From the NCBI GenBank assembly GCA_965207885.1, contig OZ242311.1:1344001-1408000 (forward strand): DNA of 64,000 nt. The letters run 5' to 3'. The position numbers and the translations under genes are program-made. The notes below the pieces were generated by a model. The model was not told where the DNA came from. It was given only the letters and a program-made list of their open reading frames with translations, and ran no database searches. Source of the DNA: Candidatus Latescibacterota bacterium (GTDB lineage: Bacteria; Latescibacterota; UBA2968). Positions 42,501 through 64,000 of the stretch are shown here, piece after piece; position 1 is the first letter of the stretch, and every line of letters starts with the position of its first letter.

Positions 42501-44333
42501 TACACGGGCATATTACCCTTGGTGCACTGCGGTATTGGTGTTGCTTTCGCCCAGGCAGGGCGGACTGCTGAGGCTGAAGAGGCTTTTAAGCAGGCGATTG
42601 AATGCCGGAGAGAATCCAAAGGCGATCACTGGGCGCGTGCATTGCTGATGGCAGGGGAGTTTTATCTCCAGCGCGATGATATGACAAGAGCTACGGAGTA
42701 TCTCGAAGCGGCAAAACAGGCGTTTGAAGAAATGGAAATGTCCTATTTTTTGGAGAAAACACAGGTGCTATTAAATCAATTATCTCACGACAAAGATGGC
42801 CGCGGCAATAATGTCGCACCCAGTTCTGAGATTTCAGTCGATACGTTGTCTGTTGATCGCTGGCGCTTGCTTTACGATGTGAGTCGGGAATTGACCACAG
42901 AGCGCGATGTCAAAGTGTTGTTGGATCGAACTTTGGGTAATTTACTGGCTGTTTATCCCGCAGAGCGAGTACTTATTGCAGTGAAAAATGAGACTCCAAA
43001 AAGCTTTGTGGTTGATGCAGTCCGTTACCACAATGTAGAAGCAGATGATGCGGAAGCACTGAGTCGGGGTATTATTCGTCGGGTTATTGAGACAAATGAA
43101 CCCATTTTGAGCGTTGATGCACAGGCAGACGACAGGCTAAATCAATATCAGAGCGTGATGGACTACAATATCCGGTCTGTATTGTGCGTATCCCTATTTC
43201 ATGTTAGCGAAGGTGTAATGGGTGCCCTGTATGTGGATCATCGCAGTATTGGCAACGCATTTTCTGAAGCAGATCAGACGTTTTTGCAGGCATTTGCGAA
43301 TCTGGTGGGGGTGGCACTGGTCAATGCGAAGATGTACGAACAATTAGAAGATAAAGCGCGATATTTGCAGCACCAAGTCGAAAGACGGTACCAGCTTGGC
43401 GATCTGGTCGGGCAAAGCGATGCGATGCAGACCATCTACTATCTTATCGAACGCGCTTCACAAAGTGATATACCCGTGCTTGTGCAAGGCGAAACAGGTA
43501 CGGGCAAAGAATTGGCTGCCCGTGCTATACACTACAATAGCAGACGCAAAGACCAGCCATTTTTGTCTCAAAATTGTGCTGCATTTTCGCCAGAGTTGTT
43601 GCAGAGCGAGTTGTTTGGGTACAAAAAAGGCGCATTTACAGGAGCGACTGAAGATCATAAGGGGATTTTTGAGGCGGCCAATGGGGGTACGGTTTTTTTA
43701 GATGAAATCGCCGATGCCTCGCCACAGTTGCAAAGGAGTTTGTTGCGGGTGTTACAAGAAGGAGAGGTGCGGCGTGTGGGAGAAACAGAGGATCGCGCAG
43801 TGGATGTACGCATTATTGCGGCGACCAATCAAGACTTAAAAAAAGAAGTAGAAAACAGATCCTTCCGTGAAGATTTGTATTACCGGTTGCATGTGATTCA
43901 GATCGATATGCCGCCTTTGCGAAAACGCATTGAAGATGTGCCATTATTGGCCGAACATCTGCTCACCCGAACAAAAGAAGAGTCAAACAAGTCGGTTGGA
44001 GGGCTGACAGTGGGTGCAATCAGGGCGCTCACAAGTTATGACTGGCCGGGCAATGTGCGCGAGTTGGAAAATAAGGTTCGACTTGCGGTTACATTGGCAG
44101 AAGAAGGTGGTGAAATCACGTCCGATTTGTTTTCAGAAGCTGTCGGTCACGCGGTGTCAGGTGCCTCTGTCGAATATCAAAAGCGTTTACGAGATCGTGT
44201 TCAGGAATATGAGAAACGGTTGATTATGGATGCGCTCGAGAAATGCGAGGGCAATATTACGCATACGGCTAAAGAACTGAGGATAACGCGTGCTGGCCTA
44301 CAAAAAAAGATCAATCGTTTGGGGTTGAAATAG
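39513..44333 (+). CDS. Hanks Ser/Thr kinase - AAA/STAND-like ATPase - TPR - GAF - sigma54 activator (bEBP) - Fis HTH fusion
   Basis: GTGGMGEV, HRDLKPSN, DMGLA, YMSPEQ; FIGRE..ISGESGVGKT, LEDIQW; helical repeats; GAF (IRSVLCVSL...GALYVD); GETGTGKE, ELFG..KGAFTGA, FLDEI, FREDLYYRL, WPGNVREL; C-terminal HTH. Confidence 0.92.
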   Translation: MFENGTILDNKYQIQAHLGTGGMGEVYRVLDLEQGQECALKILNTMVDQKAVYRRFHREFQVLNRFQHPRLVRTYTWGFAEERPYFTMEYLPGKTLEKIIADRTHSGQFRTSHFFDLIQQIAEGLAYIHAQGAVHRDLKPSNIMVLKTEKGIETTILDMGLAKLRHLHSVSITQTGTAIGTAEYMSPEQGKGLWVDHRSDLYSLGIILYEMLTGAPPFSGQNPISVIMKHIRESPPPIGEAHVEIPTQTQEIVLRLLAKEPVDRYQSAEELLQTLNDVAPLKFVLSDDEQRDVHRKVMRPQFIGRESEMKMLRTMLQDVQAGEQRVVLISGESGVGKTRLIEELLGDALIHDFLCLKGASQEEGGQIYGALIDAFQGKVDLVAELPDPAESDKFSVMERWLQLLKRLRQKQPIVLCLEDIQWLDELTLEFLQYVLRDPEPCPFLLYLTCRWSNLEPLPKEIEKFIHSNELAKATRIQLENLPREEVGYLAASMLGEISIPRDALQSLFRETGGQPLFVVEAVRALVSADVVRQNVSGDWQWGEFPETLLSNDFSEILYRRIATLPAVQQRVLEYACVFLSDFPFELLAAVWRSDELELLDVLDELIAEGLLTACGEDEDQYRFSQELCRRAIYDRMQYVRRRLLHREIGNALEKTEDAEELTEELADHFAAAEERDKAIKYMRLSGKKALEKHAYRQARMRFESVRKWTPDDAFESPADTIIFLCDYANVLRCCSQHNSALKLLDEAKALLPADRKDLKARILNDLGEIRSVTHHGEIAEEYMLKALQLYRELGDLDGEIQALGILAYLCDVSGRHEEAIAYMRREIEKRRVLEDPQQNTFIQGREGQAALMGFRFEIAKGYLETAVKAFKQPGLEHHRLWALNLLPRVYFFLGNLNRAEAICYKVIGEWQKRGVVYSEAVNLLWLGELALERGDFVEALEYAEISIERFLQTPRKDYVYRAYAIAATATAGMEDTEAALEWGEKASEGVQQTSSMYTGILPLVHCGIGVAFAQAGRTAEAEEAFKQAIECRRESKGDHWARALLMAGEFYLQRDDMTRATEYLEAAKQAFEEMEMSYFLEKTQVLLNQLSHDKDGRGNNVAPSSEISVDTLSVDRWRLLYDVSRELTTERDVKVLLDRTLGNLLAVYPAERVLIAVKNETPKSFVVDAVRYHNVEADDAEALSRGIIRRVIETNEPILSVDAQADDRLNQYQSVMDYNIRSVLCVSLFHVSEGVMGALYVDHRSIGNAFSEADQTFLQAFANLVGVALVNAKMYEQLEDKARYLQHQVERRYQLGDLVGQSDAMQTIYYLIERASQSDIPVLVQGETGTGKELAARAIHYNSRRKDQPFLSQNCAAFSPELLQSELFGYKKGAFTGATEDHKGIFEAANGGTVFLDEIADASPQLQRSLLRVLQEGEVRRVGETEDRAVDVRIIAATNQDLKKEVENRSFREDLYYRLHVIQIDMPPLRKRIEDVPLLAEHLLTRTKEESNKSVGGLTVGAIRALTSYDWPGNVRELENKVRLAVTLAEEGGEITSDLFSEAVGHAVSGASVEYQKRLRDRVQEYEKRLIMDALEKCEGNITHTAKELRITRAGLQKKINRLGLK

Positions 44334-46287: not shown

Positions 46288-46404
46288 GCAAAGAAGTTCT
46301 GATGAAAAACTGGTATCCAATACGGCATCCAAATAGGGATTAACACTCTGTTAGATGCCATTTATTTTGTTTCTTTGGGTGGGAGTCTCGACAGATTGTT
46401 GGTG

Positions 46405-47397
46405 ATGGGAGAAATATATCAATCAAAAAAATCCGGCCTCAATAAATGGCCGCTCATTGGACAGCATTCCTCACTCTTAGACGTGCAAAAGCGCGCGTAC
46501 CGCGTGGCAAATAGCGAATTGCCCGTCAACATCAGTGGAGAAACTGGCACGGGTAAGGAATTGCTCGCCCGTTATGTTCACGGCATTAGCCACCGCAACA
46601 GGGGACCATTTGTAACCGTTGACTGCGGTCTGCTCTCTTCTGAAATGTCGCGCAGCGAGTTATTTGGACATGTTCGAGGTGCTTTTACTGGCGCCAGCCA
46701 AACGCGCATCGGACTGGTTGAATCTGCCCAAGGCGGTACGCTATTCCTCGATGAAGTAGGCGAATTGCCTGCCAACCTTCAGTTGCAATTGCTACGCCTG
46801 GTACAGGAACAGGAATTTCGTCGCGTAGGCGAAGCATCCATGCGCCGGTCCAACGTGCGCCTGATCACTGCGACACACTGTAACTTGAAAAAAATGGTGC
46901 GAAAAGGGACTTTCCGAGAAGATCTCTATTACCGCTTAACTGTCGTACCTCTACATTTGCCACCCTTGCGGAAGCGACTGAGCGACTTGCCTCTTTTAAT
47001 CACGCATTTTTGCAAAAGTATGAAAGAATACAATCGCGCATTTTCCCCCGAAGTAATTCAAAGGATGTCGCATTACGCCTGGCCCGGCAATGTTCGGGAA
47101 CTACAACACGAAGTCGCCCGATTGATGGTCATGAGCGAAGGTAAAATTATCCGCGTATCCGATCTGCACCCTCGCATTCGAGGATCCAAAGCCGAGGTCG
47201 ATGTATTTGACCTCCCGTTTAAAGAAGCCAGACAACTGGCGAACAGCCGGTTTATGCGGGAGTATCTCGACAGAGCCTTGAAGCGAACACAGGGCAATGT
47301 AACCCAGGCAGCGCAACAATGCGGGATTGGCCGACAGTATTTCCAATTGCGCATGTCTGAATACGGTCTAAAGTCGGCATCTTACAAACAGAAATAA
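46405..47397 (+). CDS. Stand-alone sigma54-dependent activator (AAA+ and Fis HTH, no sensory domain)
   Basis: GETGTGKE, ELFGHVRGAFTGA, FLDEVGE, FREDLYYRL, WPGNVREL, GNVTQAA; AAA domain begins within about 20 aa of the start. Confidence 0.88.
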   Translation: MGEIYQSKKSGLNKWPLIGQHSSLLDVQKRAYRVANSELPVNISGETGTGKELLARYVHGISHRNRGPFVTVDCGLLSSEMSRSELFGHVRGAFTGASQTRIGLVESAQGGTLFLDEVGELPANLQLQLLRLVQEQEFRRVGEASMRRSNVRLITATHCNLKKMVRKGTFREDLYYRLTVVPLHLPPLRKRLSDLPLLITHFCKSMKEYNRAFSPEVIQRMSHYAWPGNVRELQHEVARLMVMSEGKIIRVSDLHPRIRGSKAEVDVFDLPFKEARQLANSRFMREYLDRALKRTQGNVTQAAQQCGIGRQYFQLRMSEYGLKSASYKQK

Positions 47398-47476
47398 TAC
47401 CTCACGGTGTACTAAAAAAACGTCAATGGAAAAATCCATTGACGTTTTTCTTTGCAGGGTGTTTCTTGAGCGTATC

Positions 47477-50400
47477 ATGCAATACATCGCCGACATACAC
47501 CTGCACTCGCGTTTTGCCCGCGCAACCAGCAAAACCCTGAACCCCGAAAACCTGTATCGGTGGAGCCTCATCAAAGGCCTGACAGTAGTAGGCACCGGAG
47601 ATTTCACCCATCCGGTATGGTTTGACGAACTGCGCGATCAACTCGAACCCGCCGAAGAAGGGCTATATCAACTGCGATCAGACCTCAGGCGAGGTATAGA
47701 CGCCGAGTTGCCACAAGCCTGTCGCGGACAAATGCGGTTTGTGCTCTCGGTCGAAATCAGTCTCATATACAAAAAGAACGACAAAACCAGAAAAATACAT
47801 CACGTCGTCACAATGCCGAGTTTTGACGCTGCGGCGCGATTAAATGCCCGACTCGGCGCAATAGGCAACCTGAAATCCGACGGACGCCCCATTCTTGGCC
47901 TGGACAGCCGGGACCTGGTAGAGATCTGTCTGGAAGCCTGTGACGAGGTACTCTTCATACCCGCGCACATCTGGACCCCTCATTTTGCTGTCCTGGGCGC
48001 GAGTTCCGGGTTTGACACCCTGGAAGAATGTTTTGAAGACATGCTCCCCCACATCTTCGCCGTAGAAACCGGCCTATCCTCCGACCCACCGATGAACTGG
48101 CGCCTATCCATGCTGGACAACTACGCAATCGTCTCCAATTCAGACGCGCATTCCCCACAAAAACTCGCCCGCGAAGCCACCTGCTTTAACACAGACCTAT
48201 CATTCCGCGGAATGTATAACGCATTAAAAGACCGCGACCCAACGCGCTTTACGGGCACCCTGGAATTCTATCCCGAAGAAGGCAAATATCACTTTGACGG
48301 ACACAGAAAATGCGACATATGCTGGAAACCCGTACAAACCCTCGACGCAGACGAAATCTGCCCGGTATGTGGCCGCAAATTGACCGTTGGCGTACTCCAC
48401 CGCGTTGAAAAACTCGCAGACCGCGCAGAAGGCGACCGCCCCGACGTGGTAATGCCCTTTGAAAACCTGATCCCACTGCCGGAAATCATCGGCTCAGTCC
48501 TCCAGGTGGGACCCACCAGCAAGCGCGTACAAACCGTGTACGAACAAATGCTATCAACACACGGAGCAGAATTGAAAATCTTGCGCGAACTGCCCATCGA
48601 AGAAATCGCCAAAACAGGAGACTTCCTCATCGCCGAAGGCATTCGACGCATGCGCGAAGGGGAAGTTCACATAGACCCGGGATACGACGGCGTGTACGGA
48701 AAAATTCAAGTCTTCTCCGACGAAGACCGCGCACGCCTGAGCGGGCAGGAAACGCTGTTTCACATACCAGCCGGGGAGCCTTCGAAAGAGAAAGCAGAGA
48801 ACGCGAGCCTGGACAAGAGCACAGAAAACTCAATAGCCAAAGATTCTTCTTTCACACTTCCCACTTCACTCTTCCCACTTCTCGACCCCCACCAGCAAGC
48901 AGCCGTAACAACGGAAAAAGGTCCCGTCATCGTAACAGCGGGACCCGGCACCGGAAAAACCCGGGTCCTCACCCATCGCGTAATCGACTTGATCCAAAAC
49001 CGCGGCGTATCACCCGCTTCTGTGATGGCCGTAACATTCACCAATCGCGCCGCAACTGAAATGTGGGAACGGATCGTATCCCTATCCTCAGGAGGCGAAG
49101 AACTGGTCCCCATGCGCGTGGGCACATTCCACCGCCTATCACTGGACCTCCTGCGAGAATACGCCCCCGAGCGAATGGGCGCAATAGCTGACCGAGGAGA
49201 AGCCCGCACCGTCTTACAGGAAGCAATCGCCGACATCGACACCGAAACATCGGTCGATGACGCCCTCTCCCAAATCTCGCTATGCAAAGCTACAGGACAG
49301 GAAATACCCGACATCACCGACACCGAACTCCAAACCATTTACACCAATTATCAACATCGCCTCACCACTTATGGCCTGATGGACTTTGACGACATCTTAC
49401 TCATACTCCACGACGTACTCTCCGGTGACATTTTACAAACAATCCAGGCGCGATTTACCCACGTACTCGTCGATGAATTTCAGGACGTCAACGCCGTACA
49501 GTACGCACTGATTCAAAAACTGTCCGGAGATGGATCGGGCCTCTTCGTCATCGGCGATCCCGATCAAGCCATCTACGGTTTTCGGGGCGCGAGCGCGGGA
49601 TATTTCGCGCAATTAAAAGCGGATTATCCCGGATCAAACGAAGTAATCCTGCAGCACACATATCGCTCCACCCCACAGATCATCTCCGCAGCATCCAGCC
49701 TGCTTCGCGGACGATCGTATGTCCCCGTGCGAGAAAATGGCCCAAATCTGAGAGCCTTATCCACACCGGGCGAAACCGGCGAAGGCATCGCCATCGTAGA
49801 AGAAATCTCCCGAATGGTCGGCGGTGCAGACTTATTGCAAGCCAACGAAGAAGGCAAACGCAGCCTGGACGACTTCGCCGTATTATTCCGTACCGGACGA
49901 CAAGCAGACGCCCTGGAAACGTGCTTCTTACAGGCCGGGATCCCCTACCGCGTCGTCGGGCAGAAAAGCTATCTGGACGCAGCTTCGGTACAGCACGCCC
50001 TATCGTTTTTTAAGTGCGTCCTGAGAGATATTTCCAGTGCCCCAACCACCAGAGATATAATCGACCTCCTCTCCATCCCCGCATTTGACCCTGGCAGAGA
50101 AGCGCGCGCAACAATGCGTCGTCAGGCTCAAAACACCGCGCTATCTGACACTGTACAGGAAAAATTGGACGCCGCGATGGAAGCCGTAGATCGCTTCCGC
50201 AATGAAACATCTCACCTATCGCCTTCCGAACGCATAGCAAAATGGGCAGAAGAATTTGCGACATCAGACGACATCGACATCGAACGACTGAGCCTGTTGG
50301 CTCAAGGCGTGGATTCCATCGCAGAGCTATTGGAAATCATCACCCTGGGACAGGATGGCGACTTTGTGCGTCGTGGAAAAATTGCGCGGCCCGAAGCCGT

Positions 50401-50707
50401 CACACTCATGACCTTGCATGCGTCCAAGGGCCTGGAATTCCCCGTGGTATTTATCTGTGGGGTTGAGGAAGGATTAATCCCGCACGCCAATGCGGATATC
50501 GAAGAAGAGAAACGCCTATTTTTCGTCGGCATAACCCGCGGACAAGACGAAGTGATCTTGACCCGCGCCCGAAGCCGCAGGCGATTTGGCGAACGCATCG
50601 CGCCCAAAATATCGCGCTTTGTAGCCGACATCCCCGAAGAAGTGATCGACTTTGTCGATCTGCGAACCGAAAGACGCAAACCCGCCGAACAACTATCCTT
50701 ATTTTAA
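47477..50707 (+). CDS. Endonuclease Q (PHP) domain fused to UvrD/PcrA-like SF1 helicase
   Basis: ADIHLHSRF..ATSK, GTGDFTHP, PAHIWTP, SNSDAHS, EGKYH.DGHRKC, CPVCG...TVGV; then AGPGTGKT, TFTN.AA, VDEFQD, IGDPDQAIYGFRGA, YRS, TLHASKGLEF, EEKRLFFVGITR; ATG 47477. Confidence 0.9.
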   Translation: MQYIADIHLHSRFARATSKTLNPENLYRWSLIKGLTVVGTGDFTHPVWFDELRDQLEPAEEGLYQLRSDLRRGIDAELPQACRGQMRFVLSVEISLIYKKNDKTRKIHHVVTMPSFDAAARLNARLGAIGNLKSDGRPILGLDSRDLVEICLEACDEVLFIPAHIWTPHFAVLGASSGFDTLEECFEDMLPHIFAVETGLSSDPPMNWRLSMLDNYAIVSNSDAHSPQKLAREATCFNTDLSFRGMYNALKDRDPTRFTGTLEFYPEEGKYHFDGHRKCDICWKPVQTLDADEICPVCGRKLTVGVLHRVEKLADRAEGDRPDVVMPFENLIPLPEIIGSVLQVGPTSKRVQTVYEQMLSTHGAELKILRELPIEEIAKTGDFLIAEGIRRMREGEVHIDPGYDGVYGKIQVFSDEDRARLSGQETLFHIPAGEPSKEKAENASLDKSTENSIAKDSSFTLPTSLFPLLDPHQQAAVTTEKGPVIVTAGPGTGKTRVLTHRVIDLIQNRGVSPASVMAVTFTNRAATEMWERIVSLSSGGEELVPMRVGTFHRLSLDLLREYAPERMGAIADRGEARTVLQEAIADIDTETSVDDALSQISLCKATGQEIPDITDTELQTIYTNYQHRLTTYGLMDFDDILLILHDVLSGDILQTIQARFTHVLVDEFQDVNAVQYALIQKLSGDGSGLFVIGDPDQAIYGFRGASAGYFAQLKADYPGSNEVILQHTYRSTPQIISAASSLLRGRSYVPVRENGPNLRALSTPGETGEGIAIVEEISRMVGGADLLQANEEGKRSLDDFAVLFRTGRQADALETCFLQAGIPYRVVGQKSYLDAASVQHALSFFKCVLRDISSAPTTRDIIDLLSIPAFDPGREARATMRRQAQNTALSDTVQEKLDAAMEAVDRFRNETSHLSPSERIAKWAEEFATSDDIDIERLSLLAQGVDSIAELLEIITLGQDGDFVRRGKIARPEAVTLMTLHASKGLEFPVVFICGVEEGLIPHANADIEEEKRLFFVGITRGQDEVILTRARSRRRFGERIAPKISRFVADIPEEVIDFVDLRTERRKPAEQLSLF

Positions 50708-54114: not shown

Positions 54115-54996
54115 TCACGCATCCAACGCTTGCTCAAACGCCTCAAGACTGGACACCTGAATCGCCGTACGATGCAACTTCTTCAGGCGTTGCAAATCTT
54201 CAATAGCGGCAATGCGAGCAGATAAGGGATCTGTTTCAGGTAGATCGAATCGAATTTCCAGCACCTCGATGATATCGGCAATAGCGCGGTCTCTCTCCCC
54301 GCGCTCAATGCCCTGCTTCATAATGTATTGTGTAAACGATGACTCGCGCATAATGGCATCCATAAGACCCTCCTGTAATAGAATACGATTGATCAGTATC
54401 GGATCATACTCTAACCCACTCAATATCATCAACCTGCCCAAAAAGTCAACCTTTATTGATTCATCCACCCGCAACGCATCCGTCGCGTCAACACAGTGAC
54501 GCAACCACGCCTCTGAATTTATCCCAACAGGATGTTTCATCAAGGGGACGAATGGAAACAAGCCCGAAGGTCCGCCATCAAGAATATCCTGTCCCTCTAT
54601 TTCACTCAGCCGAATCACTGTGTATTCTATCAAAACGTCACGGCCGGATATTTCATGAATAAAGTGTCCCGGATCGCGCCGACCTGCACTGCGCCGCAAG
54701 TAGATCACACTGGAGTAAATCGGCAGGTCGTGACGCTCAATCGCACGTATAATATAGCCCGCCATGCGGAGCGGCATAGATGGATCGTCAATCGTTTGAA
54801 ACTCGTGATGCACCAATGCCTCCTTGCCCGCAATATGGACGCGGATAAGGCTATCGGTATGTCGTGTATCAACCGTGCTTTGCTCCGTATCGAGTATGTC
54901 CAGGACTTCTACATCGTCCTGTTCAAGCGTGAGGCGGATAAAGTCTTTGGGATAGGTCTGGATCAGATCTTTGGAGACAGAGTCATATTCGGCCAT
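54115..54996 (-). CDS. Rpn family recombination-promoting nuclease / putative transposase (PD-(D/E)XK)
   Basis: YD...K.L, TDSL, HHEFQ, MPLRM..Y, VIYL; C-terminal GIERGE...VLEIRF...L..L tail. Confidence 0.8.
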   Translation of the reverse strand: MAEYDSVSKDLIQTYPKDFIRLTLEQDDVEVLDILDTEQSTVDTRHTDSLIRVHIAGKEALVHHEFQTIDDPSMPLRMAGYIIRAIERHDLPIYSSVIYLRRSAGRRDPGHFIHEISGRDVLIEYTVIRLSEIEGQDILDGGPSGLFPFVPLMKHPVGINSEAWLRHCVDATDALRVDESIKVDFLGRLMILSGLEYDPILINRILLQEGLMDAIMRESSFTQYIMKQGIERGERDRAIADIIEVLEIRFDLPETDPLSARIAAIEDLQRLKKLHRTAIQVSSLEAFEQALDA

Positions 54997-55331: not shown

Positions 55332-55502
55332 TTATTTTGATTTAGATAGTGTTAGTGTCACATCTCTCACTGCCAGTAAAAACGCCTCTATATCCCCATT
55401 TTGCTCATAATCCTCAAGCGCAACGGAAAGATATATCTTCGCGCCTTCTGGATCACGTAGCTGCTCAATATGATAGTCTTTGAAGTTTAGATAGTTACTC
55501 AT
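55332..55502 (-). pseudogene. Truncated addiction-module antidote protein (HI1420-like N-terminus)
   Basis: From ATG 55502: FKDYHIEQLRDPEGAKIYLSVALEDY...DIEAFLLAVRDV, ending before the expected HTH. Confidence 0.6.
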
Positions 55503-55535
55503 TTTTGGACTCTGTTGAGTTATGCTCTCTAAAAC

Positions 55536-55571
55536 AAAAGCCCGCTGGATGTGCATCCCATCGGGCTTTTT
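55536..55571. terminator. Terminator closing the phosphorothioation operon
   Basis: AAAAGCCCG...CGGGCTTTTT with A/T runs, about 50 bp downstream of the DGQHR gene stop. Confidence 0.75.
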
Positions 55572-55621
55572 CATTCTTGATGTTTCTTTACTATATTGTG
55601 CAGAAATTTCAGAACTTCGGT

Positions 55622-56890
55622 TTAGTCGTATAGCCTATCCGGAAGATTGACATTTGATCGTTCCTCTTCTGGAAAGTGACTGGCGTAAAAGTCTTTTAGA
55701 TTATCAAGTTCCGATTTCGAGAGCGACTCACCTAAGTAGTAAGCAATAAACCTCGATGCGAAATTTATCGCCTGCGTACCGCTGACGATTCTCGATCCGT
55801 TCATTAGAATACGTTGCCACATTGGGTTATCAATCCCCCAATCAACTTCATTGACTCGCTGAAGGATATCATTCCAAGAAAACCGTGATCCGTCAGATTT
55901 ATCTGCCGCCTTCAATCGAACGACCGCGAGCATTAATGCCCGCTGGCAAACCGGTTTGCCGAGAAGCAATGTATCTCTGATCTCCTTTCGTTTCTCATCT
56001 CCGCTATCCTCTTTATCCACCAACGCAGCGTGATATGTTGTTATGCCATTCGAGAGCTTTTCCCAATATTCCTTTGCTAGGTTCCGATAAAGTACTCGTG
56101 TCGCCGGATCAGGTAGAGTTTGGGTCTCTATCTTACCAAATGTTTCTGCGAGTACGGACTTAGTTGACTCGTAAATTGTTGACAAAGTTGTGAAGTAATG
56201 TGCAGTTTTTGACAAAGTGTTGGATCGATAGTTGACAAGACGACTTCCGATAACTTCGTTCGCGATCTCCCTCGAAATAACAGAGATAATATCATCGTCT
56301 GCAGTAATCAGATTCTCTGCCTTGGTTGTAGCCTTTGCGTATCGATTTACCTTATTGAAGATTTTTCGCCCTTTATACGGGTCATCATGTTTAATTAAGA
56401 TTAGCAAGACATCATCGTTAGCCAATTCTTGGTTTGGGCTGAATTCTTCTATTGGTCTATCCTTCTCGTCCTTACCGGACAGAGCGAATTGGATTGCGGC
56501 AAGTCTATGTTGACCATCCAATGGAACCAACAGCTCACCGCCTGAGAGTATGAGAAACCCAAAGGATTTCGCCGCTGTCTCGTAGAGTGTCGGAACCTCA
56601 TGCAGTATTTTGTTCGCTGGCTCAAATTTCATCTCTTCCGCATTAATTACGGCAACGATTAGTGCCCCAAAAAATTGATCTGAATCGGTAGCGAGATAGG
56701 GCGCGATTTGTTTCTTAACTCGATTATAGTTAATCTCCCGCTGAAAGCGTTCTTCAAGATCAAGTTCTCCCCAGTTAGGAATTTCTCTTGGTATAGTGAG
56801 CTGGTTTTTAACGTCGTTCGCTTTCATAGTAATCATAAAATAGTCGGTTGAACCGAACCGCCCTTTCATAGCGGGATGTACGCTAGCCAT
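55622..56890 (-). CDS. dndB: DndB-like DGQHR domain protein (ParB-like fold)
   Basis: PAMKGRFGSTDYF, FQREIN..RV...IAPYL, FFGALIVA, LDGQHRL.AI, R.IF..VNRYAK. Confidence 0.85.
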   Translation of the reverse strand: MASVHPAMKGRFGSTDYFMITMKANDVKNQLTIPREIPNWGELDLEERFQREINYNRVKKQIAPYLATDSDQFFGALIVAVINAEEMKFEPANKILHEVPTLYETAAKSFGFLILSGGELLVPLDGQHRLAAIQFALSGKDEKDRPIEEFSPNQELANDDVLLILIKHDDPYKGRKIFNKVNRYAKATTKAENLITADDDIISVISREIANEVIGSRLVNYRSNTLSKTAHYFTTLSTIYESTKSVLAETFGKIETQTLPDPATRVLYRNLAKEYWEKLSNGITTYHAALVDKEDSGDEKRKEIRDTLLLGKPVCQRALMLAVVRLKAADKSDGSRFSWNDILQRVNEVDWGIDNPMWQRILMNGSRIVSGTQAINFASRFIAYYLGESLSKSELDNLKDFYASHFPEEERSNVNLPDRLYD

Positions 56891-57266
56891 GTGTTTTCCT
56901 CCAATTAGTTGATTTTGGCGTGTAGTCTTGATACCGATCTTCGTTCGTTATTGGTTGTAAAAAAAGAATAAGTGACTTTTCGAGATCGTCTATTTCTGTC
57001 TCTTCACATCGAAGGTATATGAATTTGACGTCTCCATCTAGTGCTTTAACCCAAAGAGATAGCTTCGCGTTGTGGGACCCATTATAGTGTTGTGTCAATC
57101 GCTCCTGTACACCCTGATCAGTAGATTTCCCCACATAGACGAAGTCATGGTTGTGATAAAATATGTAGACACCTATCGTTTTCTTTGGAATATCCAATAT
57201 GTTCTGTAAAGTAAATCGTCTTCCGTTGTTTCTGAGTTCTCTTGAGAAGTTATTCGGGAACAGCAT
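56883..57266 (-). CDS. GIY-YIG nuclease family protein
   Basis: IGVYIF...FVYVGKS...ERL.QH...E..LI...P..N pattern; overlaps the DGQHR gene start by 8 nt. Confidence 0.8.
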   Translation of the reverse strand: MLFPNNFSRELRNNGRRFTLQNILDIPKKTIGVYIFYHNHDFVYVGKSTDQGVQERLTQHYNGSHNAKLSLWVKALDGDVKFIYLRCEETEIDDLEKSLILFLQPITNEDRYQDYTPKSTNWRKTHG

Positions 57267-57347
57267 TTCGTTTATCCTGACGATACATAAAAGTTACTCC
57301 ATACTATTTCAGGCACTTAGAAACCAAAGTAAACTTATACTGACAGA

Positions 57348-58160
57348 CTATAAATGACAAATCGCGCAACCCTCAGTCTCATCAATCACGGGCAAGTCTC
57401 TGAGAGGTTGATCTACAATATCATCCAGGGTTTTCCCATCCACCCAGGTAAATTTCTTCCCATCCTTCACCTGTTCGTATTCTTTGGCCTTCTCGAACAG
57501 ATCAGGATGTTCTTCTTTCAACCTCTGCCACTCCCCAATCTGCTGATAAAAGCAAAAGTAACACCCCGACCGTGACCGCCACTTGTAATACTCAGGCAAT
57601 CCCAATCCAGACTCTTCCAGAATCTGTTTAATATCCGATAGGCCAAGCCCATCATCCTTAAACGGATAAACCGGAATAATATTAGGCTGTTGAGAAATCG
57701 AGGGGGGTTTTTTTGCGATGTACCCATCCCGGTCTTCATCGTCGCGGATACCAATATAACTATATGCCTGGCTATCACCAACATAATCCTCAAAAGGTTC
57801 AATTTTTAACACGCGAGTACACCACCGTGATCTCGGGCTGGGCAAATAGCCGCCGTATATTTCATTCAAATACATATCAAACGGATTGCGCCCGGGTTTC
57901 TTCTCCACCTTTAAGCCGTCGAGCGCGTTCAAATGCACGATTTTCACGCCTAACAAGGCTTCCAAACGCTCCAGGTATTGATATGTCTCATCCAATTCGC
58001 ATCCGGTATCACAAAACACATACTCTGCACGGATCTCTGGATAATACTGACGCATATAAATCGCCAATGCAGCAGAATCTTTCCCGCCCGATACACTAAC
58101 AATGTGGCGCATCTCGGGATTATCCTGCAAGCTTGCCAGTGCTTCCTTGAGCGTTGCCAT
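57348..58160 (-). CDS. sspD: PAPS reductase-family ATP pyrophosphatase (SspD-like)
   Basis: VSVSGGKDS, FCDTG.E, P....RWCTR.LKI.PF, IGIR.DE, RSRSGCYFCFYQ, C-terminal CAICHL. Confidence 0.8.
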   Translation of the reverse strand: MATLKEALASLQDNPEMRHIVSVSGGKDSAALAIYMRQYYPEIRAEYVFCDTGCELDETYQYLERLEALLGVKIVHLNALDGLKVEKKPGRNPFDMYLNEIYGGYLPSPRSRWCTRVLKIEPFEDYVGDSQAYSYIGIRDDEDRDGYIAKKPPSISQQPNIIPVYPFKDDGLGLSDIKQILEESGLGLPEYYKWRSRSGCYFCFYQQIGEWQRLKEEHPDLFEKAKEYEQVKDGKKFTWVDGKTLDDIVDQPLRDLPVIDETEGCAICHL

Positions 58161-61100
58161 TTTCCGTCTCCCCTGTTAGTTGCTCCGAAATTAAAGCGTG
58201 AGCCTGCTCTTCCCCCACCAAATCTTTTAGACGACCGATCAATTCACCAATCCTCCCACTTACGAGAATGGCAAGACCTTGAACGGCTTCCCCATTGTCT
58301 TTCATATTCGCATCTGCGGACAGAGCAGATTCCTCTATACGTCGCACCACATTCTGAACTTCACGATCAAAATTCGCGATCGTGCTGTCATCCCACCGCG
58401 ATGTGGTTTTACCCGATAGCAAACTCGCCAGCGAATCTAAAAACAAAGCATCGGTCTCATAAGGCATCCGCATTCGAGACAGCAACCCCTTTGCAACACC
58501 ATCTGTCAACTGCATCACAAATTCTCGCGGAAAACACTCTGCCCAACGCCTCGCGCACTCGCGGATATTATCTTCTCGACCTCGCACCCCAATAGAAATT
58601 GCACGACGCAATGAAGTTGCAGCGTGTTTGCGAAAAATACCCACTACATCATCCAACTCTTGCTTATGCGTTACCAGAGCATTCAAAAATGCATCGCAAT
58701 CATCCAATGAATAGCCCAATAGCGCACCGGGAATCCGTTCAAACAGCAACTGCACGGGGTCCGACGACCGTTGAATCGCTGCCTGAAAACGACGTGCTCG
58801 TTCAGATACTTGCTTTGTCGTCAATGCAGCCGGGGGCAATTGCGCCTTCCATGCTTCCAGTGCATCGTAACACCGACGTATGAGATCGCCATCGGGCATC
58901 TGCCCTACGTGTTCGCCAGCAAAGCACTGATAAAACCCGAGCAAATAGTCGCGTTTGGACGTATCTATATCCAGCACAATCAATTGATAGTGATCTGGCT
59001 CGCGGCACAACTGCTCGATAACAGATGGCAATACATCGGCCACGTATTTACCCTCGTACGCCAAAGATAATGCACTCGGAAATGCCTTTAAGCCCGTCCC
59101 AAATAGAATGGGCAACAATCCAGCGCGAACCCCATAAGGCGGTGCCATAAGCGTATTGAAAAATCCCTGAATATCCTTCGGCTCTTTTGCAGGTGTTGTC
59201 AAAAATACGCGAACCTCATCCCAAACGCCTCTTAGCCCTTCGTCTTCTACTTCCTCGGACATCGCATAACGCCAGCGTCCATCATCGTCTTCTCTATATA
59301 ATCCTGTGTGCAACAACACCGTACGGAACATGGACGCATCCGGGTAATTACCCTCTATGCCCAGCATCTCCTGACCTGACCTCTCCAGCACACCGAGCAA
59401 CAGTTTTTTGCGGGAGTTCACAATGGTGGCTGCAGGCTTGTTACGCACGATGAGTTCATTATTGATCTTTGGCGTCAGAGGATATACTTGCTTTGCGATC
59501 TCAGATAAAGCACTGCGCAACGCGCTCGGACTCTGCACATCAAGCTCTGCCCCACGATAAAACCATCGTGGACCATTGGGCGCAGGATGCACGAGCCGAT
59601 CAATCAAACGCTGCATAAGCCCGCGCGCATCATCGGCCATCTGATGTAACTCGGGCACTACGAGAGGATCGGAATCGACAAGGTCGGCATCAAATTGCAT
59701 TTGGGACAGACACCAAACCTCAAGCGCGGCTTCAAACAGCGGTAGAGGTTCTCTCGGAATTGCCAGTATCACGCGGTCGTGATCCGAATGATTGCGTGCC
59801 GTATCCTCGGCATAATCCAACTCGCTATGTGTCTCAGCCGTTACATAAACAATTTTGCCATCACTCGCATCTTCAACATAATCTGTTTGAAACTCCGGAC
59901 TCAAAAATCCTCGTAAGGTACTCTGGTTTTGAAATTCACCGACAAAATACCGCCGAATACAAAACTCGTCATTATAACGCACAGGTCGCCAGGCGGGAGG
60001 ACGCACTTCTTCCGTCAGAAATTCCCATAACTCAAAGGTATCGCGATATCGATTCTTCTCTTCTTCCAATCGCCCCCGCAAATCCATATCCGTGCCATGC
60101 CACACAGCCACTTCATCACTGTGCTTGCGGTGGAGCAGCAACTTATGCTCAATCAAGCGATCAATTGTTGCAGTTTCACGCTTTGATTCAATATACCCTT
60201 TCAGGGCAAATTCCAAAAGGTCACGACCCGCACGTGACCGCTCTCCACTCGTGCCCAACCCCAACAAACACGCTATTTTCAACGCACTGACAGCATCTTC
60301 GTCGTGACCGACCTTTGTCAACGCACTTTGTGTTTCCAACCACTGCCGATACGTCCCCCCCACAGCAGAATCTGCACGCATATCTGGAGAGAAAAAATCG
60401 TAAAGCGCGTCGGGTTTCACAAAGGACGTAAAATCTACCTGGTAGAGAAAACTAAATAACGTGCGTTCATTTTGCGCCACACGCGCTGAAAGACGAGGCA
60501 ACAAATACAACGCAACAGGCTCAAGCGGACAAGAAAGTACAAATAAATCTGCCAATTCCTTCCTGGTAAAATCAGAAAAAATATCCAACTCACGGCACTG
60601 ATTAACAGCCCTTTGAATCGCTTTTTTGTCGATCTTATCGAATTGTGATCGGGCAGATACGGCTTCAGCAATCAGGCGATAAATCTCTTTGCTGTCATCG
60701 ATATACTGAATGGTCTGAAAACGCCCCTCAATTTTTCGCCATTCGGTTCGCACCGCCTGCGGCATACTACCTGCATATTGCAACAACTCCTGGTGCAACA
60801 ATAGCCCGAGTGTCACGGGAATGGCCTTAGACCGACTCACGAACTCGGCCAACGACTGAATTTCACTCAAAGCAGCGGAACGCCCTTCGGAAATCAATGA
60901 CTCAATATGGCGTCCAAACTCATCCCACAAAATCACAATCCGATCACAGCCTGATGCAAGCGCCTTATCCCGGACCGCGGCGAGCAATTCTATTGCCTGA
61001 TCAATCGTCTCACACGGCATGGCGTCAATCGCACGCGCTTGACGACCGAGCTTGATACGCCACATCCCCTTGAGTGCGGCATCTTTCAGGCTCGTACTTA

Positions 61101-61467
61101 AATCCCGACAATAGCCCTGCAATGCCAGCACAAGCCCATTGTCTTTCGCTTTGCGACGTTCTTTGGAAAACTTACCCAAATCTGGACTAACCACCTTCAA
61201 CTTGTCTTCAACAGTAGATAGTGTTTCATCGGCATCGGGACGATTTTCAACCAAATGCAACAAATAGGTCGCTGTAATTGATTTCCCCGTTCCATAGGGT
61301 GCGACCACAAAAAAGGCGCGATCAGGCATCTGTCCCGCGAGTGCCTTGAGCAGCGATACACTCTTCCCCGTTGGGCGATAGTGAGACACCCGCTCGGGAT
61401 AATTGGCATCGTATTGGATATTGATAGAGCGCAAAAACGCTTCAGCAGTCTGTTCATTATGCGGCAC
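58120..61467 (-). CDS. sspC: Large P-loop ATPase (SspC-like)
   Basis: FLRSINIQYD, APYGTGKS Walker A, ILWDEFGR Walker B, LLHQ, EW.KIEGRF, QNERTLFSFL, PPYGVRAG; sits between DUF4007 and PAPS reductase genes. Confidence 0.8.
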   Translation of the reverse strand: MPHNEQTAEAFLRSINIQYDANYPERVSHYRPTGKSVSLLKALAGQMPDRAFFVVAPYGTGKSITATYLLHLVENRPDADETLSTVEDKLKVVSPDLGKFSKERRKAKDNGLVLALQGYCRDLSTSLKDAALKGMWRIKLGRQARAIDAMPCETIDQAIELLAAVRDKALASGCDRIVILWDEFGRHIESLISEGRSAALSEIQSLAEFVSRSKAIPVTLGLLLHQELLQYAGSMPQAVRTEWRKIEGRFQTIQYIDDSKEIYRLIAEAVSARSQFDKIDKKAIQRAVNQCRELDIFSDFTRKELADLFVLSCPLEPVALYLLPRLSARVAQNERTLFSFLYQVDFTSFVKPDALYDFFSPDMRADSAVGGTYRQWLETQSALTKVGHDEDAVSALKIACLLGLGTSGERSRAGRDLLEFALKGYIESKRETATIDRLIEHKLLLHRKHSDEVAVWHGTDMDLRGRLEEEKNRYRDTFELWEFLTEEVRPPAWRPVRYNDEFCIRRYFVGEFQNQSTLRGFLSPEFQTDYVEDASDGKIVYVTAETHSELDYAEDTARNHSDHDRVILAIPREPLPLFEAALEVWCLSQMQFDADLVDSDPLVVPELHQMADDARGLMQRLIDRLVHPAPNGPRWFYRGAELDVQSPSALRSALSEIAKQVYPLTPKINNELIVRNKPAATIVNSRKKLLLGVLERSGQEMLGIEGNYPDASMFRTVLLHTGLYREDDDGRWRYAMSEEVEDEGLRGVWDEVRVFLTTPAKEPKDIQGFFNTLMAPPYGVRAGLLPILFGTGLKAFPSALSLAYEGKYVADVLPSVIEQLCREPDHYQLIVLDIDTSKRDYLLGFYQCFAGEHVGQMPDGDLIRRCYDALEAWKAQLPPAALTTKQVSERARRFQAAIQRSSDPVQLLFERIPGALLGYSLDDCDAFLNALVTHKQELDDVVGIFRKHAATSLRRAISIGVRGREDNIRECARRWAECFPREFVMQLTDGVAKGLLSRMRMPYETDALFLDSLASLLSGKTTSRWDDSTIANFDREVQNVVRRIEESALSADANMKDNGEAVQGLAILVSGRIGELIGRLKDLVGEEQAHALISEQLTGETENGNAQGSTGKLAG

Positions 61468-62371
61468 GACGGTCTCCTCGTTCCAAATCTGCGTAATAGT
61501 TCCGCAACCAATCGAGAGGTTTTTTCTTAGTCACTCGAATCATACGACTACCAGCCAGGCCAGCAATCTGAATCTCCCGCGCCCCCAGAGTGGCTTCAAC
61601 CTGTGAGGTTAAGTCAAACAACGATTCACTTGTCAACACAAATGCTCGCCCGGGGCCACCGGGTTGTCGCGCAGCCTGAAGTAGCGGAATATCTACGGTC
61701 CCCTCACCTTCAGTCAAGTCTGGAAAAGCCTGAGCCAGAGCATAACCAAACAAATGAGGAGGCACATCCTTCATACCCTGATGTAATTGATAATATCCCG
61801 ACATCCGAAAATGGTTCAACAACCCCAATTCGACAAATGGACATTCCCGCGCTTCTTCTGGATCATCGTGCTCAACGGGAATCACGCGTCCATAGCTGGC
61901 CAGCATACATGCGAGATCGCGTTCCAAAGTCGATGTCCTGGGAGAACGGACCCCCGACATAAGCACATGCCGGCGTAAACTCTCCAAGCACACCGACCGA
62001 TCAAATCGGTGCAAATTAAAATGGTTGAAGAACCATTTCCAAGTATATACCTGTGTCTTGGGGGCAACCAGATTTAGATGCAAAGCCCACCATGTCCCTG
62101 CTTCATTAAAATAGCGATCACGCTCATAAATAAGCCTACCAAGTTCTGTTTCTTCCAACGGGGACTGACGCCCATTACCTGTCACGCGCTCAGCCAATCC
62201 CGTTACCACCAGCCAATGACGAATAGAACGAGACATATTTTTTCCAACGCCGAGCCAATCGGCAACATATTCATCATATAGCAACTCGGGATCCTCAATG
62301 AGTAGCTTAAGCCCTTTGTGAAGCCATCCCTCTCGAATTGCAAAAGTTTCGTGTCCACTAAATTTCATCAT
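61457..62371 (-). CDS. sspB: DUF4007 family protein (SspB-like)
   Basis: FSGHETF.IREGWLHKG, LGVGKNM..SIRHWL, D.Y.....T.W.LH, CPF.ELGL. Confidence 0.85.
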   Translation of the reverse strand: MMKFSGHETFAIREGWLHKGLKLLIEDPELLYDEYVADWLGVGKNMSRSIRHWLVVTGLAERVTGNGRQSPLEETELGRLIYERDRYFNEAGTWWALHLNLVAPKTQVYTWKWFFNHFNLHRFDRSVCLESLRRHVLMSGVRSPRTSTLERDLACMLASYGRVIPVEHDDPEEARECPFVELGLLNHFRMSGYYQLHQGMKDVPPHLFGYALAQAFPDLTEGEGTVDIPLLQAARQPGGPGRAFVLTSESLFDLTSQVEATLGAREIQIAGLAGSRMIRVTKKKPLDWLRNYYADLERGDRRAA

Positions 62372-63549
62372 CCCACCTCTGCTGAAAGCGACAACCGTCG
62401 CCGACTAAACCTCCGCAATTGTTCACACAACCACGCCAGATGTGCAACCGTATCATCGACATCTTCAACCGTATTAAACTCCGAAAAACTAAATCGGATA
62501 CTCGCATAAGCCTCGGATTCAGACAGGCCCATAGCTCGCAACACATACGAAGGCTCGGGTCGCTGATTGGTACATGCCGAACTCTGTGAACAGCGAATCC
62601 CTTCCTGGTCCAACCGTGCCACGAGTGCCTGACCATCCACATCTCGAAAAAGCAAATTCGTCGCATTGCAAACTCGCATATCGGGATCGCCATTGATCTC
62701 GACATCGGGCACGCGATCAATGACTGATTGCTCAAAATCATCTCGAAGCGAAGCCATAAGCCCCTGTATATCCTCTAATCGCTCCAACCGCAACTGAGCC
62801 GCGGTTCCCATGCCAATAATACCCGGCACATTCTCCGTCCCTGGTCGCAACCCACCTTCTTGCGATCCGCCCCAAAGCAATGGCAATAACTCTTTGGACG
62901 ACCTTACATAAAGTGCCCCAATTCCCTGTGGCCCGTGGAATTTGTGCGCTGTAAAAGTTAAAAAATCAATGGGCAGTTCTGTTATAGAAACGGGCAGTTT
63001 ACCAACAGCCTGCGCCGCATCAGTGTGAAATAACACCCCTCGAGATTGACAAAGCCGAGCAACCCGCTCAATGGGCAAAATCGCGCCTGTTTCATTATTC
63101 ACCCACTGCACAGAAACCAGATCAGTATCTGGCGTAATAGCCTCATCCAATGCTTCCCAAGCCAACTGCCCGCAACGATCCACCGGAACAGATACCACTT
63201 CAACGCCTCTTGCGCCGAGATAGTCACACATCTTCACAATTGACGAGTGTTCTACGGTCGTCGTCACAATGCGAACCCGTTTTTCGGTTGGGGCACGTTG
63301 AACAACAGAATTAAACACCGTGTTATTTGCCTCCGTTCCACTCCCCATAAACACAATCTGATCGGCCTCAGCCCCCACCAACTGTGCAACGGCTTCACGC
63401 GCTGCAACCATTGCTTCGCGCACCCGATCACCAGCCGAATGTGCGCTCGACGGATTGCCAAAATCCTCGCCCATTACACGCATCATTGTTTCGCGCACCT
63501 CGGGCAAAGGCTTTGTTGTCGCATTATTGTCTAAATACACTTCTCTCAT
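62368..63549 (-). CDS. sspA: Cysteine desulfurase (SspA/DndA/IscS-like)
   Basis: YLDNNATT, GNPSS.H, GTEANN, EHSS, NNETG, HTDAAQAVGK, TAHKFHGPQG, R.GTEN, SQSSAC, PSYVL.AMG; ATG 63549; ATGA overlap with DUF4007 gene. Confidence 0.88.
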   Translation of the reverse strand: MREVYLDNNATTKPLPEVRETMMRVMGEDFGNPSSAHSAGDRVREAMVAAREAVAQLVGAEADQIVFMGSGTEANNTVFNSVVQRAPTEKRVRIVTTTVEHSSIVKMCDYLGARGVEVVSVPVDRCGQLAWEALDEAITPDTDLVSVQWVNNETGAILPIERVARLCQSRGVLFHTDAAQAVGKLPVSITELPIDFLTFTAHKFHGPQGIGALYVRSSKELLPLLWGGSQEGGLRPGTENVPGIIGMGTAAQLRLERLEDIQGLMASLRDDFEQSVIDRVPDVEINGDPDMRVCNATNLLFRDVDGQALVARLDQEGIRCSQSSACTNQRPEPSYVLRAMGLSESEAYASIRFSFSEFNTVEDVDDTVAHLAWLCEQLRRFSRRRLSLSAEVG

Positions 63550-63640
63550 GATCAACTCTCATTAAAAGCAAAATTCGTACCAAAAATCGAAACTTTTTCT
63601 AAATCCCTGTAAATTTTCGATCTAAGACCACCGACAAATT

Positions 63641-63907
63641 TCAGACCCTGGACAAATCAGAGCGGTTATGGTTAAAAAGTTTCAACTGATTTGCATCGGA
63701 TTGATCAATAGGTTCAATTCGATTGGCAAACTGGCGAATCTCTTCCGCCTCAGCAGAAGTGAAGAGAATTTGCCGACCACGATACCGATGTCCAGCAGGA
63801 ACTTTGCCTTCATTCCGCCATCGCCAAAGCGTTTGGCGCGACACATTCAAAGCATCTATGACCTCGGTTGCTGAATAATAGGTGATACTGTCAATCTGAA
63901 TCGGCAT
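63641..63907 (-). CDS. Small winged-HTH DNA-binding protein (excisionase/AlpA/MerR-like)
   Basis: YYSATEV...LNVSRQTLWRWRNEGKVP...R.RGRQILFT..E pattern. Confidence 0.85.
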   Translation of the reverse strand: MPIQIDSITYYSATEVIDALNVSRQTLWRWRNEGKVPAGHRYRGRQILFTSAEAEEIRQFANRIEPIDQSDANQLKLFNHNRSDLSRV

Positions 63908-64000
63908 ATCGATGTCTCGCAGTGTCTTAAAGCGTTACGTATGTCTCTTTATGTAACATGCAGTTCTATGCTAAGACTCAAATATGCTACTGTCAACAAC

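Follow-up and report, generated by a model that had tools for sequence, protein, structure and literature searches.

A GIY-YIG protein and a DndB-like DGQHR protein as a candidate two-subunit restriction partner of an SspABCD phosphorothioation operon in Candidatus Latescibacterota

Which protein restricts DNA on behalf of the phosphorothioate (PT) writer SspABCD when no known effector is encoded beside it? According to Wang et al. 2021 (PMC8092258), 2,211 of 2,678 sspBCD clusters (83.9%) have neither sspE nor sspFGH, and further restriction partners were proposed for them, with the question whether such partners exist or the systems are truly orphan. The question is raised anew by an operon of Candidatus Latescibacterota bacterium (GenBank assembly GCA_965207885.1, contig OZ242311.1), in which the four ssp genes are followed by genes for a stand-alone GIY-YIG protein and for a DGQHR/DndB-like protein, here designated DndBl. 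The window, that is, the whole stretch of 64,000 nt analysed, spans contig positions 1344001–1408000 of a genome consisting of a single 6.2-Mb contig, and coordinates are given as positions in the window. On sequence and structure-model evidence, we consider the GIY-YIG protein and DndBl a candidate two-subunit PT-aware nuclease, analogous but not orthologous to SspE and DndI, that would provide SspABCD with its restriction arm, and put the probability of this reading at roughly 55%. Sulfur-based DNA immunity probably has in this pair one of its missing restriction partners.

Of the more than 1,200 relatives that match DndBl in length, 23 were aligned (alignment A1). The scan of contigs from one genome per species with A1 returned 139 relatives, and the best 80 loci, about 20 kb each, were kept (four of them had no upstream sequence to inspect). 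With a profile built from 30 GIY-YIG proteins (A2), a GIY-YIG gene was detected directly 5' of the DndBl gene and on the same strand in 51 of the 80 loci; elsewhere in these loci it was found only in L022, whose short contig carries it 3' of DndBl, and in L038, where it lies 2.8 kb upstream. The preliminary description of this DNA would have given up its proposal if the pair did not recur next to sspD in other genomes; it follows sspB-C-D, as in the window, in 22 other loci out of the 51. Twenty further pairs come after a cysteine desulfurase gene, a short dndC and a DUF262+DUF1524 gene, with no DndD/E or SspB/C there. The short DndC proteins have 384–398 amino acids (aa) and match PADLOC DndC at 1e-107 to 1e-113; the DUF262+DUF1524 protein corresponds to PADLOC HEC-06/Orf5, with weaker SspE matches. 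The pair follows a divergent 344-aa PP-loop-like protein in four loci and a canonical dndBCDE cluster with a dnd-associated methyltransferase in one. The remaining four pair loci are without a writer, three of them being short or edge contigs and one (L014) carrying a degraded pair. Since the pair goes with four kinds of writer, a reader of their common product fits better than a subunit of one writer. We also entertain, tentatively and at well below even odds, the broader idea that the pair is a writer-agnostic PT reader-nuclease, a portable cassette for at least four PT writers (SspABCD, DndBCDE, DndA plus short DndC with a DndI-like gene, and the divergent PP-loop enzyme).

The gene set of cysteine desulfurase, short DndC, DUF262+DUF1524 DndI/HEC-06-like protein, GIY-YIG and DndB-like protein forms a five-gene cluster without DndD/E or SspB/C, for example, at L035:5448-11278. 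It was seen in L024, L025, L029, L030, L032–L036, L038, L040, L043–L046, L048, L049, L051–L053, L055, and L056, and many of the hosts are sponge-associated metagenome-assembled genomes (MAGs), as judged from record titles. The short DndC had no sequence match among solved structures. This cluster may represent a minimal PT system.

The adjacency to writer genes is also compatible with an accessory role in writing, in which DndBl would be an NTPase that limits or positions PT insertion, as an elaborated form of the DndB role, and the GIY-YIG protein would make or process nicks at target sites. This we regard as unlikely, at about one chance in five. It is favored by the presence of an SspD, DndC, or divergent PP-loop gene in 47 of 51 pair loci, mostly immediately upstream, by the GIY-YIG-less variants, in which DndBl comes directly after DndC, and by the short-DndC loci, which are without DndD/E and SspB/C, so that another protein might have to target the writer. 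DpdB, a DndB-like ATPase, reportedly has a direct part in the insertion of 7-deazaguanine. The frequency of PT is under the control of canonical DndB (PMC4507180, PMC10853773). On the other side, the minimal sets sspBCD and dndCD write PT without such a pair, and SspB has already been described as the nickase of Ssp systems (PMC12914056). The four writer architectures with which the pair goes are unrelated, and in five loci (L004, L030, L046, L052, and L053) the pair forms a unit of its own, convergent to the writer genes.

In one of these five loci, in a Pseudomonadales MAG, the GIY-YIG and DndB-like proteins are fused in frame into one protein of 555 aa (L004:9602-11269), convergent to sspBCD and adjoining a GajB-like helicase gene. 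No other fusion was found in a search of the range 740–2110 aa, which misses a fusion of about 550 aa, or above 258 aa among the best 150 GIY-YIG proteins listed.

Seventy full-length DndBl rows went into a quick maximum-likelihood tree; rows with a match of fewer than 370 query residues or an open reading frame (ORF) outside 380–480 aa had been dropped. All GIY-YIG-linked DndBl proteins except those of L073, L078, and L082 fell into one clade of 49 rows (99% support in the Shimodaira–Hasegawa-like approximate likelihood ratio test, SH-aLRT). It contains two smaller clades, one Ssp-linked with 21 rows (88%) and the other DndC-linked with 22 rows (100% SH-aLRT). The GIY-YIG-less L026–L028 are nested in the DndC-linked clade, which suggests secondary loss of the nuclease gene. 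Host phyla are thoroughly mixed in the tree.

These data bear on another explanation, a selfish or PT-independent nuclease cassette (homing-like, addiction, or abortive-infection) that merely piles up in defense islands by PT genes. GIY-YIG domains are typical of homing endonucleases, and the fold search described below includes I-TevI and T4 EndoII. The composition of the pair points in the same direction: among 26 loci picked for intact spans (16 Ssp-type and 10 DndC-type), its G+C content was below that of the adjacent writer genes in 25, the gap being 0.09–0.23 in all 16 Ssp-type loci, and in the window, the pair (55622–57266) has 0.427 vs. 0.493 for 57348–63555. The island is flanked by an Rpn-like transposase-type gene and an IS4-type transposase gene, and a close DndBl homologue was present in only one of 18 same-genus genomes searched (G018, 46% identity, of the DndC-linked type). 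Nevertheless, the same-orientation linkage to a PT writer holds across many phyla, in 47 of 51 loci, the sole full-length locus without a writer (L014) has a degraded pair, and the tree divides by writer type, which we argue reflects long co-residence with the writer. We therefore give a selfish cassette a low probability, below that of an accessory of the writer.

[quoted passage not shown] Across 30 homologues with 29% mean identity, residues Y44, G46, R56, H60, E96, P105, and N108 do not vary at all, and G32, Y34, and W72 hardly vary; the catalytic roles of Y34, Y44, G46, R56, H60, E96, and N108 are taken to be those of the corresponding residues of UvrC and I-TevI. The AlphaFold2 (AF2) model has a mean predicted local distance difference test score (pLDDT) of 89.3, and the best Foldseek match is the GIY-YIG domain of UvrC, 1yd2 (E 2.6e-4, target-normalised TM 0.73, root-mean-square deviation (rmsd) 2.9 Å, 91 columns). 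Weaker fold matches were to R.Eco29kI, T4 EndoII, a 5-hydroxymethylcytosine-specific restriction enzyme, and I-TevI. By sequence, the profile matched UvrC alone among PDB chains (E 0.056), NCBIfam gave weak matches to UvrC and Cho, and no PADLOC family was assigned. The profile search returned 267 clusters at E<=1e-10; since the best 150 proteins listed span only 79–258 aa, the family seems to have no DNA-binding domain of its own, and a catalytic domain alone would require a partner to reach DNA.

The similarity to UvrC raises the case of a PT maintenance or repair module, in which a UvrC/Cho-like incision would be made beside oxidised or damaged PT linkages for replacement. The N-terminal nuclease domain of UvrC is indeed the closest solved fold, the weak UvrC and Cho matches agree with it, and PT oxidation and repair are mentioned in PMC12914056. 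We noticed no repair partner genes in the loci, however; the slot after sspD is hypervariable and is occupied by PbeA-like restriction-type genes in congeners, and the sporadic, cassette-like distribution fits defense better than maintenance. Repair is thus a very improbable function of the pair.

DndBl belongs to a separate DGQHR clade and is not a canonical DndB, as judged from its sequence. It scored 98.8 bits with TIGR03187 (DGQHR; cut-off 58.85) and 134.6 bits with PF14072 (cut-off 29.1); with TIGR03233, the DndB equivalog, it reached 81.9 bits, below the cut-off of 328, and its identity to annotated dndB genes is 20–23%. The motif D125-G-Q-H-R129 is invariant in the 23 aligned sequences, as are the motifs FNKVN and TADDD. 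GmrSD_N matched at 17.5 bits, under its cut-off of 33.2, and GmrSD_C was not detected. The AF2 model (pLDDT 82.4) has an alpha/beta N-terminal half and a helical C-terminal half. Weak structural rows were obtained for the N-terminal half by VIA (caution level 8): PadC with Z 5.3 (rmsd 6.1, 127 aligned), BrxU with Z 5.1, and sulfiredoxin with Z 5.0 (rmsd 3.6, 89 aligned). The helical half had no convincing structural match, and the DndBl profile had none among PDB chains at E<=1. The C-terminal part of DndB was labelled HEPN by Makarova et al. 2013 (PMC3632139). There is no invariant His past residue 168 in the 23-sequence alignment, so the HEPN Rx4-6H site seems to be absent from DndBl. Phage and plasmid collections yielded distant DndB relatives alone (20–28% identity) and no copy of the DndBl clade. 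Larger Ssp-adjacent proteins with a DGQHR/DndB-like N-terminal region and a C-terminal part without family assignment occur at L047:11435-13309 (624 aa) and L090:4855-7149 (764 aa).

In two dnd clusters, L077 and L082, genes for DndC, DndD, and DndE accompany one for a bona fide DndB (400 and 493 bits, respectively), and each cluster has a DndBl-type paralogue at its 3' end. These paralogues sit in the sister clade of the tree, and the nuclease accompanies the L082 copy alone. Because it coexists with true DndB there, the DndB-like lineage of DndBl is not redundant with the regulator, which also counts against an accessory role in writing. The preliminary description had offered the alternative that the protein is only a transcriptional repressor, like canonical DndB, which would make the GIY-YIG gene an unrelated neighbor. 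The DGQHR domain and the Pfam DndB match speak for this, as does repression by DndB in Salmonella (PMC4507180, PMC10853773). It is weakened by the score of 82 vs. 328 bits together with the low identity to dndB, by the wider-clade relatives beside true DndB in the two dndBCDE clusters, by the strict adjacency to, and predicted binding with, a GIY-YIG protein whose catalytic residues are intact, and by the gene order, with DndBl last in the unit and a helix-turn-helix (HTH) gene first. We consider a mere repressor highly unlikely. The proposal of an Ssp/Dnd hybrid was overstated in the same description, as the clade is separate and no Dnd component has been borrowed.

The two proteins are predicted to bind each other. 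Co-folding of A1 with A2, which the preliminary description had suggested, passed its controls, with a score of 0.65 (runs of 0.71, 0.65, and 0.00) vs. 0.00 for the best control; 58 of 80 solved complexes attained the mark, as did two of 110 mismatched pairs. Contact agreement was at least 0% and partner pLDDT at least 71 in the runs. The predicted interface joins residues 249–271 and 327–340 of DndBl, in the C-terminal helical domain, with residues 3–9, 38–42, 68–76, and 101–113 of the GIY-YIG protein, and contains the nearly invariant G252 and G334 of DndBl and W72 of GIY-YIG. No solved complex of this type is known to us, and a pass due to a memorised structure therefore seems unlikely.

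The two-subunit nuclease could work as follows. The locus would be a PT restriction-modification-type defense island, where SspABCD puts PT into host DNA. DndBl, with its presumed ParB/Srx fold, would bind DNA, hydrolyse NTP, and read the PT status, like the DUF262 domains of SspE and DndI. The GIY-YIG protein, having no DNA-binding domain of its own, would dock on the C-terminal helical domain of DndBl and, once docked, nick or cut DNA without the host PT pattern. Control could run in either direction, by activation by PT as in SspE or by release or inhibition at PT as in DndI: in SspE, PT stimulates the NTPase and leads to nicking, and in DndI, PT-triggered release shields self DNA (PMC11662687).

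Several points weigh against a restriction function of the pair. DndBl can be retained without the nuclease, as in L026–L028 and L031, four loci belonging to the same clade, where DndC is directly followed by DndBl with no GIY-YIG gene. A DndI/SspE-like DUF262+DUF1524 gene lies in the same cluster in 20 of 51 pair loci, and PbeA/PbeC-like genes adjoin the pair in some Ssp loci; a restriction role of the pair would be redundant there. SspE, SspF, SspG, and SspH were not among the 25 of 123 PADLOC families listed for the Ssp-type flanks, although single matches could remain. The ParB/SspE-like fold of DndBl is consistent with Pfam and TIGRFAM profiles and with weak structural rows; Foldseek with the DndBl model found nothing at E<=0.001, and the best VIA value, Z 5.3, is lower than the caution level. 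One of the three co-folding runs gave 0.00, and the use of custom alignments makes the calibration approximate. Finally, the fusion in L004 could be a single rare event or a MAG assembly error. The claim that the pair stands in place of SspE was thus borne out in part: no SspE is nearby and the pair follows sspD, but related pairs coexist with DUF262+DUF1524 or Pbe-like genes.

Among 105 ORFs from the flanks of 20 Ssp-type loci, PADLOC recognised four members of PbeA, four of HNH, two of PbeC, and two of type IV restriction endonucleases. In L015 (11567-16295), PbeA- and PbeC-like genes lie 3' of the DndB-like gene, with a sigma-70 region 4 protein between. Three ORFs of matching sizes occupy the same position in L021 (13502-18252; scanned in the pooled flank set).

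The place after sspD was compared in close relatives of the host. SspD (PADLOC PDLC02782, E<=1e-20) was detected in 44 of 168 genomes of the phylum; sspBCD clusters occur in approximately 3% of representative genomes (PMC12914056). Nine other genomes of the genus carry the same SspD subtype, and six of them were examined (L089–L094, from G001, G015, G002, G090, G006, and G011, respectively), three with fragmented contigs being left out. Their SspA and SspD are 81–92% identical to the window proteins (SspD 86–90%) and their SspB and SspC 59–65%, which suggests diverging target specificity. In G001 and G006, sspD is followed by a PbeA-like gene (phospholipase D and superfamily 2 helicase; PADLOC PbeA ~1e-195) and an ABC ATPase gene. 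In G011, a divergent GIY-YIG protein (143 aa) and a DndB-like protein (477 aa, 26% identity) come first, then PbeA-like and ABC ATPase genes. G015 has a 235-aa protein (GIY-YIG-like at hhalign 52% only) and a 764-aa protein that begins with a DGQHR domain (hhalign 96.5%), followed by a PbeA-like gene, and G002 and G090 have convergent unknown genes and a HerA-like ATPase gene. Congeners with orthologous sspABCD but without the pair speak against its being an accessory of the writer. This arrangement, in which the writer is conserved but its neighbor is hypervariable and in some cases a known PT-associated restriction module, is what one would expect of a restriction slot.

How does the proposed nuclease compare with known systems? 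The SspABCD-SspE system (Xiong et al. 2020, as cited elsewhere; structure and mechanism of SspE in PMC9646914, mechanism in PMC11662687) has the same writer set, SspA, SspB (DUF4007), SspC, and SspD, and the proposed effector would likewise consist of a ParB-superfamily NTPase/sensor and a small metal-dependent nuclease, encoded right after sspD. SspE unites an N-terminal DUF262 (DGQQR) domain and a DUF1524/HNH domain at the C-terminus in one polypeptide, whereas the window encodes two polypeptides, with a DGQHR/DndB-family sensor instead of DUF262 and a GIY-YIG nuclease instead of DUF1524/HNH, and no PADLOC SspE model fits either. The IscS-DndBCDE-DndI system (Tang et al. 2024, PMC11662687) resembles the proposed pair in joining a PT-sensing ParB-like NTPase and nickase to a Dnd writer; DndI differs as a single DUF262-HNH protein that coexists with the pair in 20 related loci, and there is no DndI-like gene in the window. 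Canonical DndB (TIGR03233) shares the DGQHR motif, a presumed ParB/Srx-type N-terminal half, and the association with PT genes; DndBl is longer (422 aa vs. 358 aa for the L077 DndB ORF), is encoded last, not first, and is coupled to a nuclease. In the type IV systems GmrSD and BrxU (PMC4619093; 7p9k), a ParB-like NTPase and a nuclease also make up a modification-sensing unit, and GmrS/GmrD are two proteins as well, but both the sensor subfamily and the nuclease superfamily differ from those of the pair. Moreover, modified DNA is the target of type IV enzymes, whereas the writer to which the pair is linked modifies the DNA of the host itself.

Krishnan et al. 2024 (PMC10853773) placed URI/GIY-YIG nucleases at the borders of Dnd neighborhoods, as boundary or back-up effectors, and treated SspE as the DndB equivalent; the portion of that text used here describes no obligate GIY-YIG + DGQHR pair or link to sspBCD. 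Yuan et al. 2026 (PMC12914056) reported DUF262 beside dndC and regarded DndB as a non-essential regulator. The literature searched contained no account of Ssp with an obligate GIY-YIG + DGQHR pair, although supplementary tables may list such neighborhoods.

The writer itself is complete: PADLOC matched all four Ssp proteins, and Pfam agreed for SspA, SspB, and SspD (it assigned no family to SspC), as the preliminary description had proposed. PT writing by the operon is inferred from family membership, the function of SspABCD being taken from PMC8092258 and PMC12914056. The seven co-directional ORFs are backed by Pfam or PADLOC (Table 1), and, as had been noted, most junctions overlap: SspA/SspB by 4 nt, SspB/SspC by 11 nt, SspC/SspD by 41 nt, and GIY-YIG/DndBl by 8 nt, as read from the coordinates. 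Gaps of 85 nt and 81 nt separate the HTH gene from SspA and SspD from GIY-YIG, respectively. With Pfam, PADLOC, and NCBIfam profiles, no DUF262-HNH, DndD/DndE, DndFGH, or PglZ gene was found inside the unit, in agreement with the earlier reading.

Table 1. Features of the ssp operon in the window.
Feature	Position	Strand	Evidence and remarks
Sigma-70-like promoter site, TTGACA-17-TAGCAT	63968-63996	-	10/12 consensus matches; upstream of HTH gene
HTH_17 protein (MerR/excisionase-like), 88 aa	63641-63907	-	Pfam HTH_17 1.6e-9; candidate operon regulator
SspA, cysteine desulfurase, 395 aa	62368-63555	-	PADLOC SspA 6.8e-130; Pfam Aminotran_5 6.8e-74
SspB (DUF4007), 304 aa	61457-62371	-	Pfam DUF4007 4.4e-61, 207 bits vs. 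cut-off 27; PADLOC SspB 2.7e-118
SspC, P-loop ATPase, 1115 aa	58120-61467	-	PADLOC SspC 1.2e-172, residues 9-1046; GTGKS Walker-A-like motif
SspD, PAPS-reductase-like PP-loop protein, 270 aa	57348-58160	-	PADLOC SspD 2.9e-94; Pfam PAPS_reduct 6.7e-13, above cut-off; SGGKDS motif
Stand-alone GIY-YIG nuclease (predicted), 127 aa	56883-57266	-	Pfam GIY_YIG_2 1.7e-8, 35.0 bits vs. 22.4; proposed cutting subunit
DndBl (DGQHR/DndB-like, putative ParB fold), 422 aa	55622-56890	-	Pfam DndB 5.5e-39; TIGR03187 98.8 bits; proposed sensor/NTPase subunit
Hairpin and U run, intrinsic-terminator-like	~55530-55571	-	9-bp G+C-rich stem, then UUUUGUUUU (fold of 55515-55625)

The sigma-70-like site is a consensus match alone, and the region holds nine such sites vs. 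a mean of 12.5 in shuffles, i.e., fewer. HTH orthologues with 86–92% identity lie 5' of sspA in three of the six congeners examined; among the 80 distant loci, the HTH gene was not conserved at E<1e-4. The terminator placed at the operon end by the preliminary description was recovered by folding as a G+C-rich hairpin with a U run, approximately 46 nt past the DndBl stop (the 111-nt stretch has -26.6 kcal/mol, z -2.9). Its loop exceeds the length allowed by a simple terminator pattern scan, which therefore missed it.

It had also been supposed that sspE, sspFGH, or pglZ just beyond position 64000 might be the real effector. No candidate was found in the 20 kb beyond it or downstream in the window, with Pfam on the eight larger ORFs of each side and no SspF/G/H model run by name. 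The single PADLOC SspE model used genome-wide (PDLC02786) had zero matches, and PADLOC gave no SspE match for any of the eight ORFs scanned in the region. The genome has one DndB-family gene, one SspD, and two DUF262 ORFs (PF03235), about 0.4 Mb and 1.7 Mb off and unlinked to the locus. Upstream, the 20 kb past 64000 carry genes for a MacB/FtsX permease, an IS4-type transposase, a penicillin-binding protein (PBP1), a thiamine pyrophosphate enzyme, and sugar-nucleotide functions, and Pfam assignments of neighboring ORFs include ABC permease, transposase, PBP, amidohydrolase, and others. Downstream of the pair come an 80-aa ORF, a 293-aa ORF, and then metabolic genes. The 80-aa ORF (55332–55574, minus strand) begins within the terminator hairpin and may be no real gene. 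The 293-aa ORF (54115–54996, minus strand) has no Pfam family; a protein atlas linked it to clusters of Rpn-family recombination-promoting nucleases/transposases (score 0.97, to be taken only as a lead). These two ORFs and the IS4-type transposase gene (L002:3921-5036) together suggest the border of a mobile island.

Farther away on the plus strand, 47426–50707 encodes a UvrD-type helicase of 1093 aa, whose N-terminal ~485 aa have no Pfam match; between it and the Ssp island lie the metabolic genes, to which it is convergent. A 1606-aa protein (39513–44333, plus strand) combines a Ser/Thr kinase, an AAA_16/STAND-like NTPase, TPR, GAF, and a sigma-54 activator domain, and its neighbors are a radical SAM/SPASM gene and the gene for a second sigma-54 activator (46375–47397, plus strand).

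For the biology of sspBCD clusters, a compact, conserved two-gene candidate makes the question of their partners directly testable, and the window operon is a clean case since the pair is the sole candidate effector there. A minimal PT writer would be indicated by the five-gene clusters, which have neither DndD/E nor SspB/C. Should the pair read PT, recognition of backbone sulfur by a DGQHR protein of the ParB fold would become understandable, and a GIY-YIG enzyme would join the PT toolbox, e.g., for mapping of PT sites. A writer-agnostic reader-nuclease, if true, would explain part of the large orphan sspBCD class and would be a third ParB-superfamily way to read backbone sulfur, the first coupled to a GIY-YIG nuclease.

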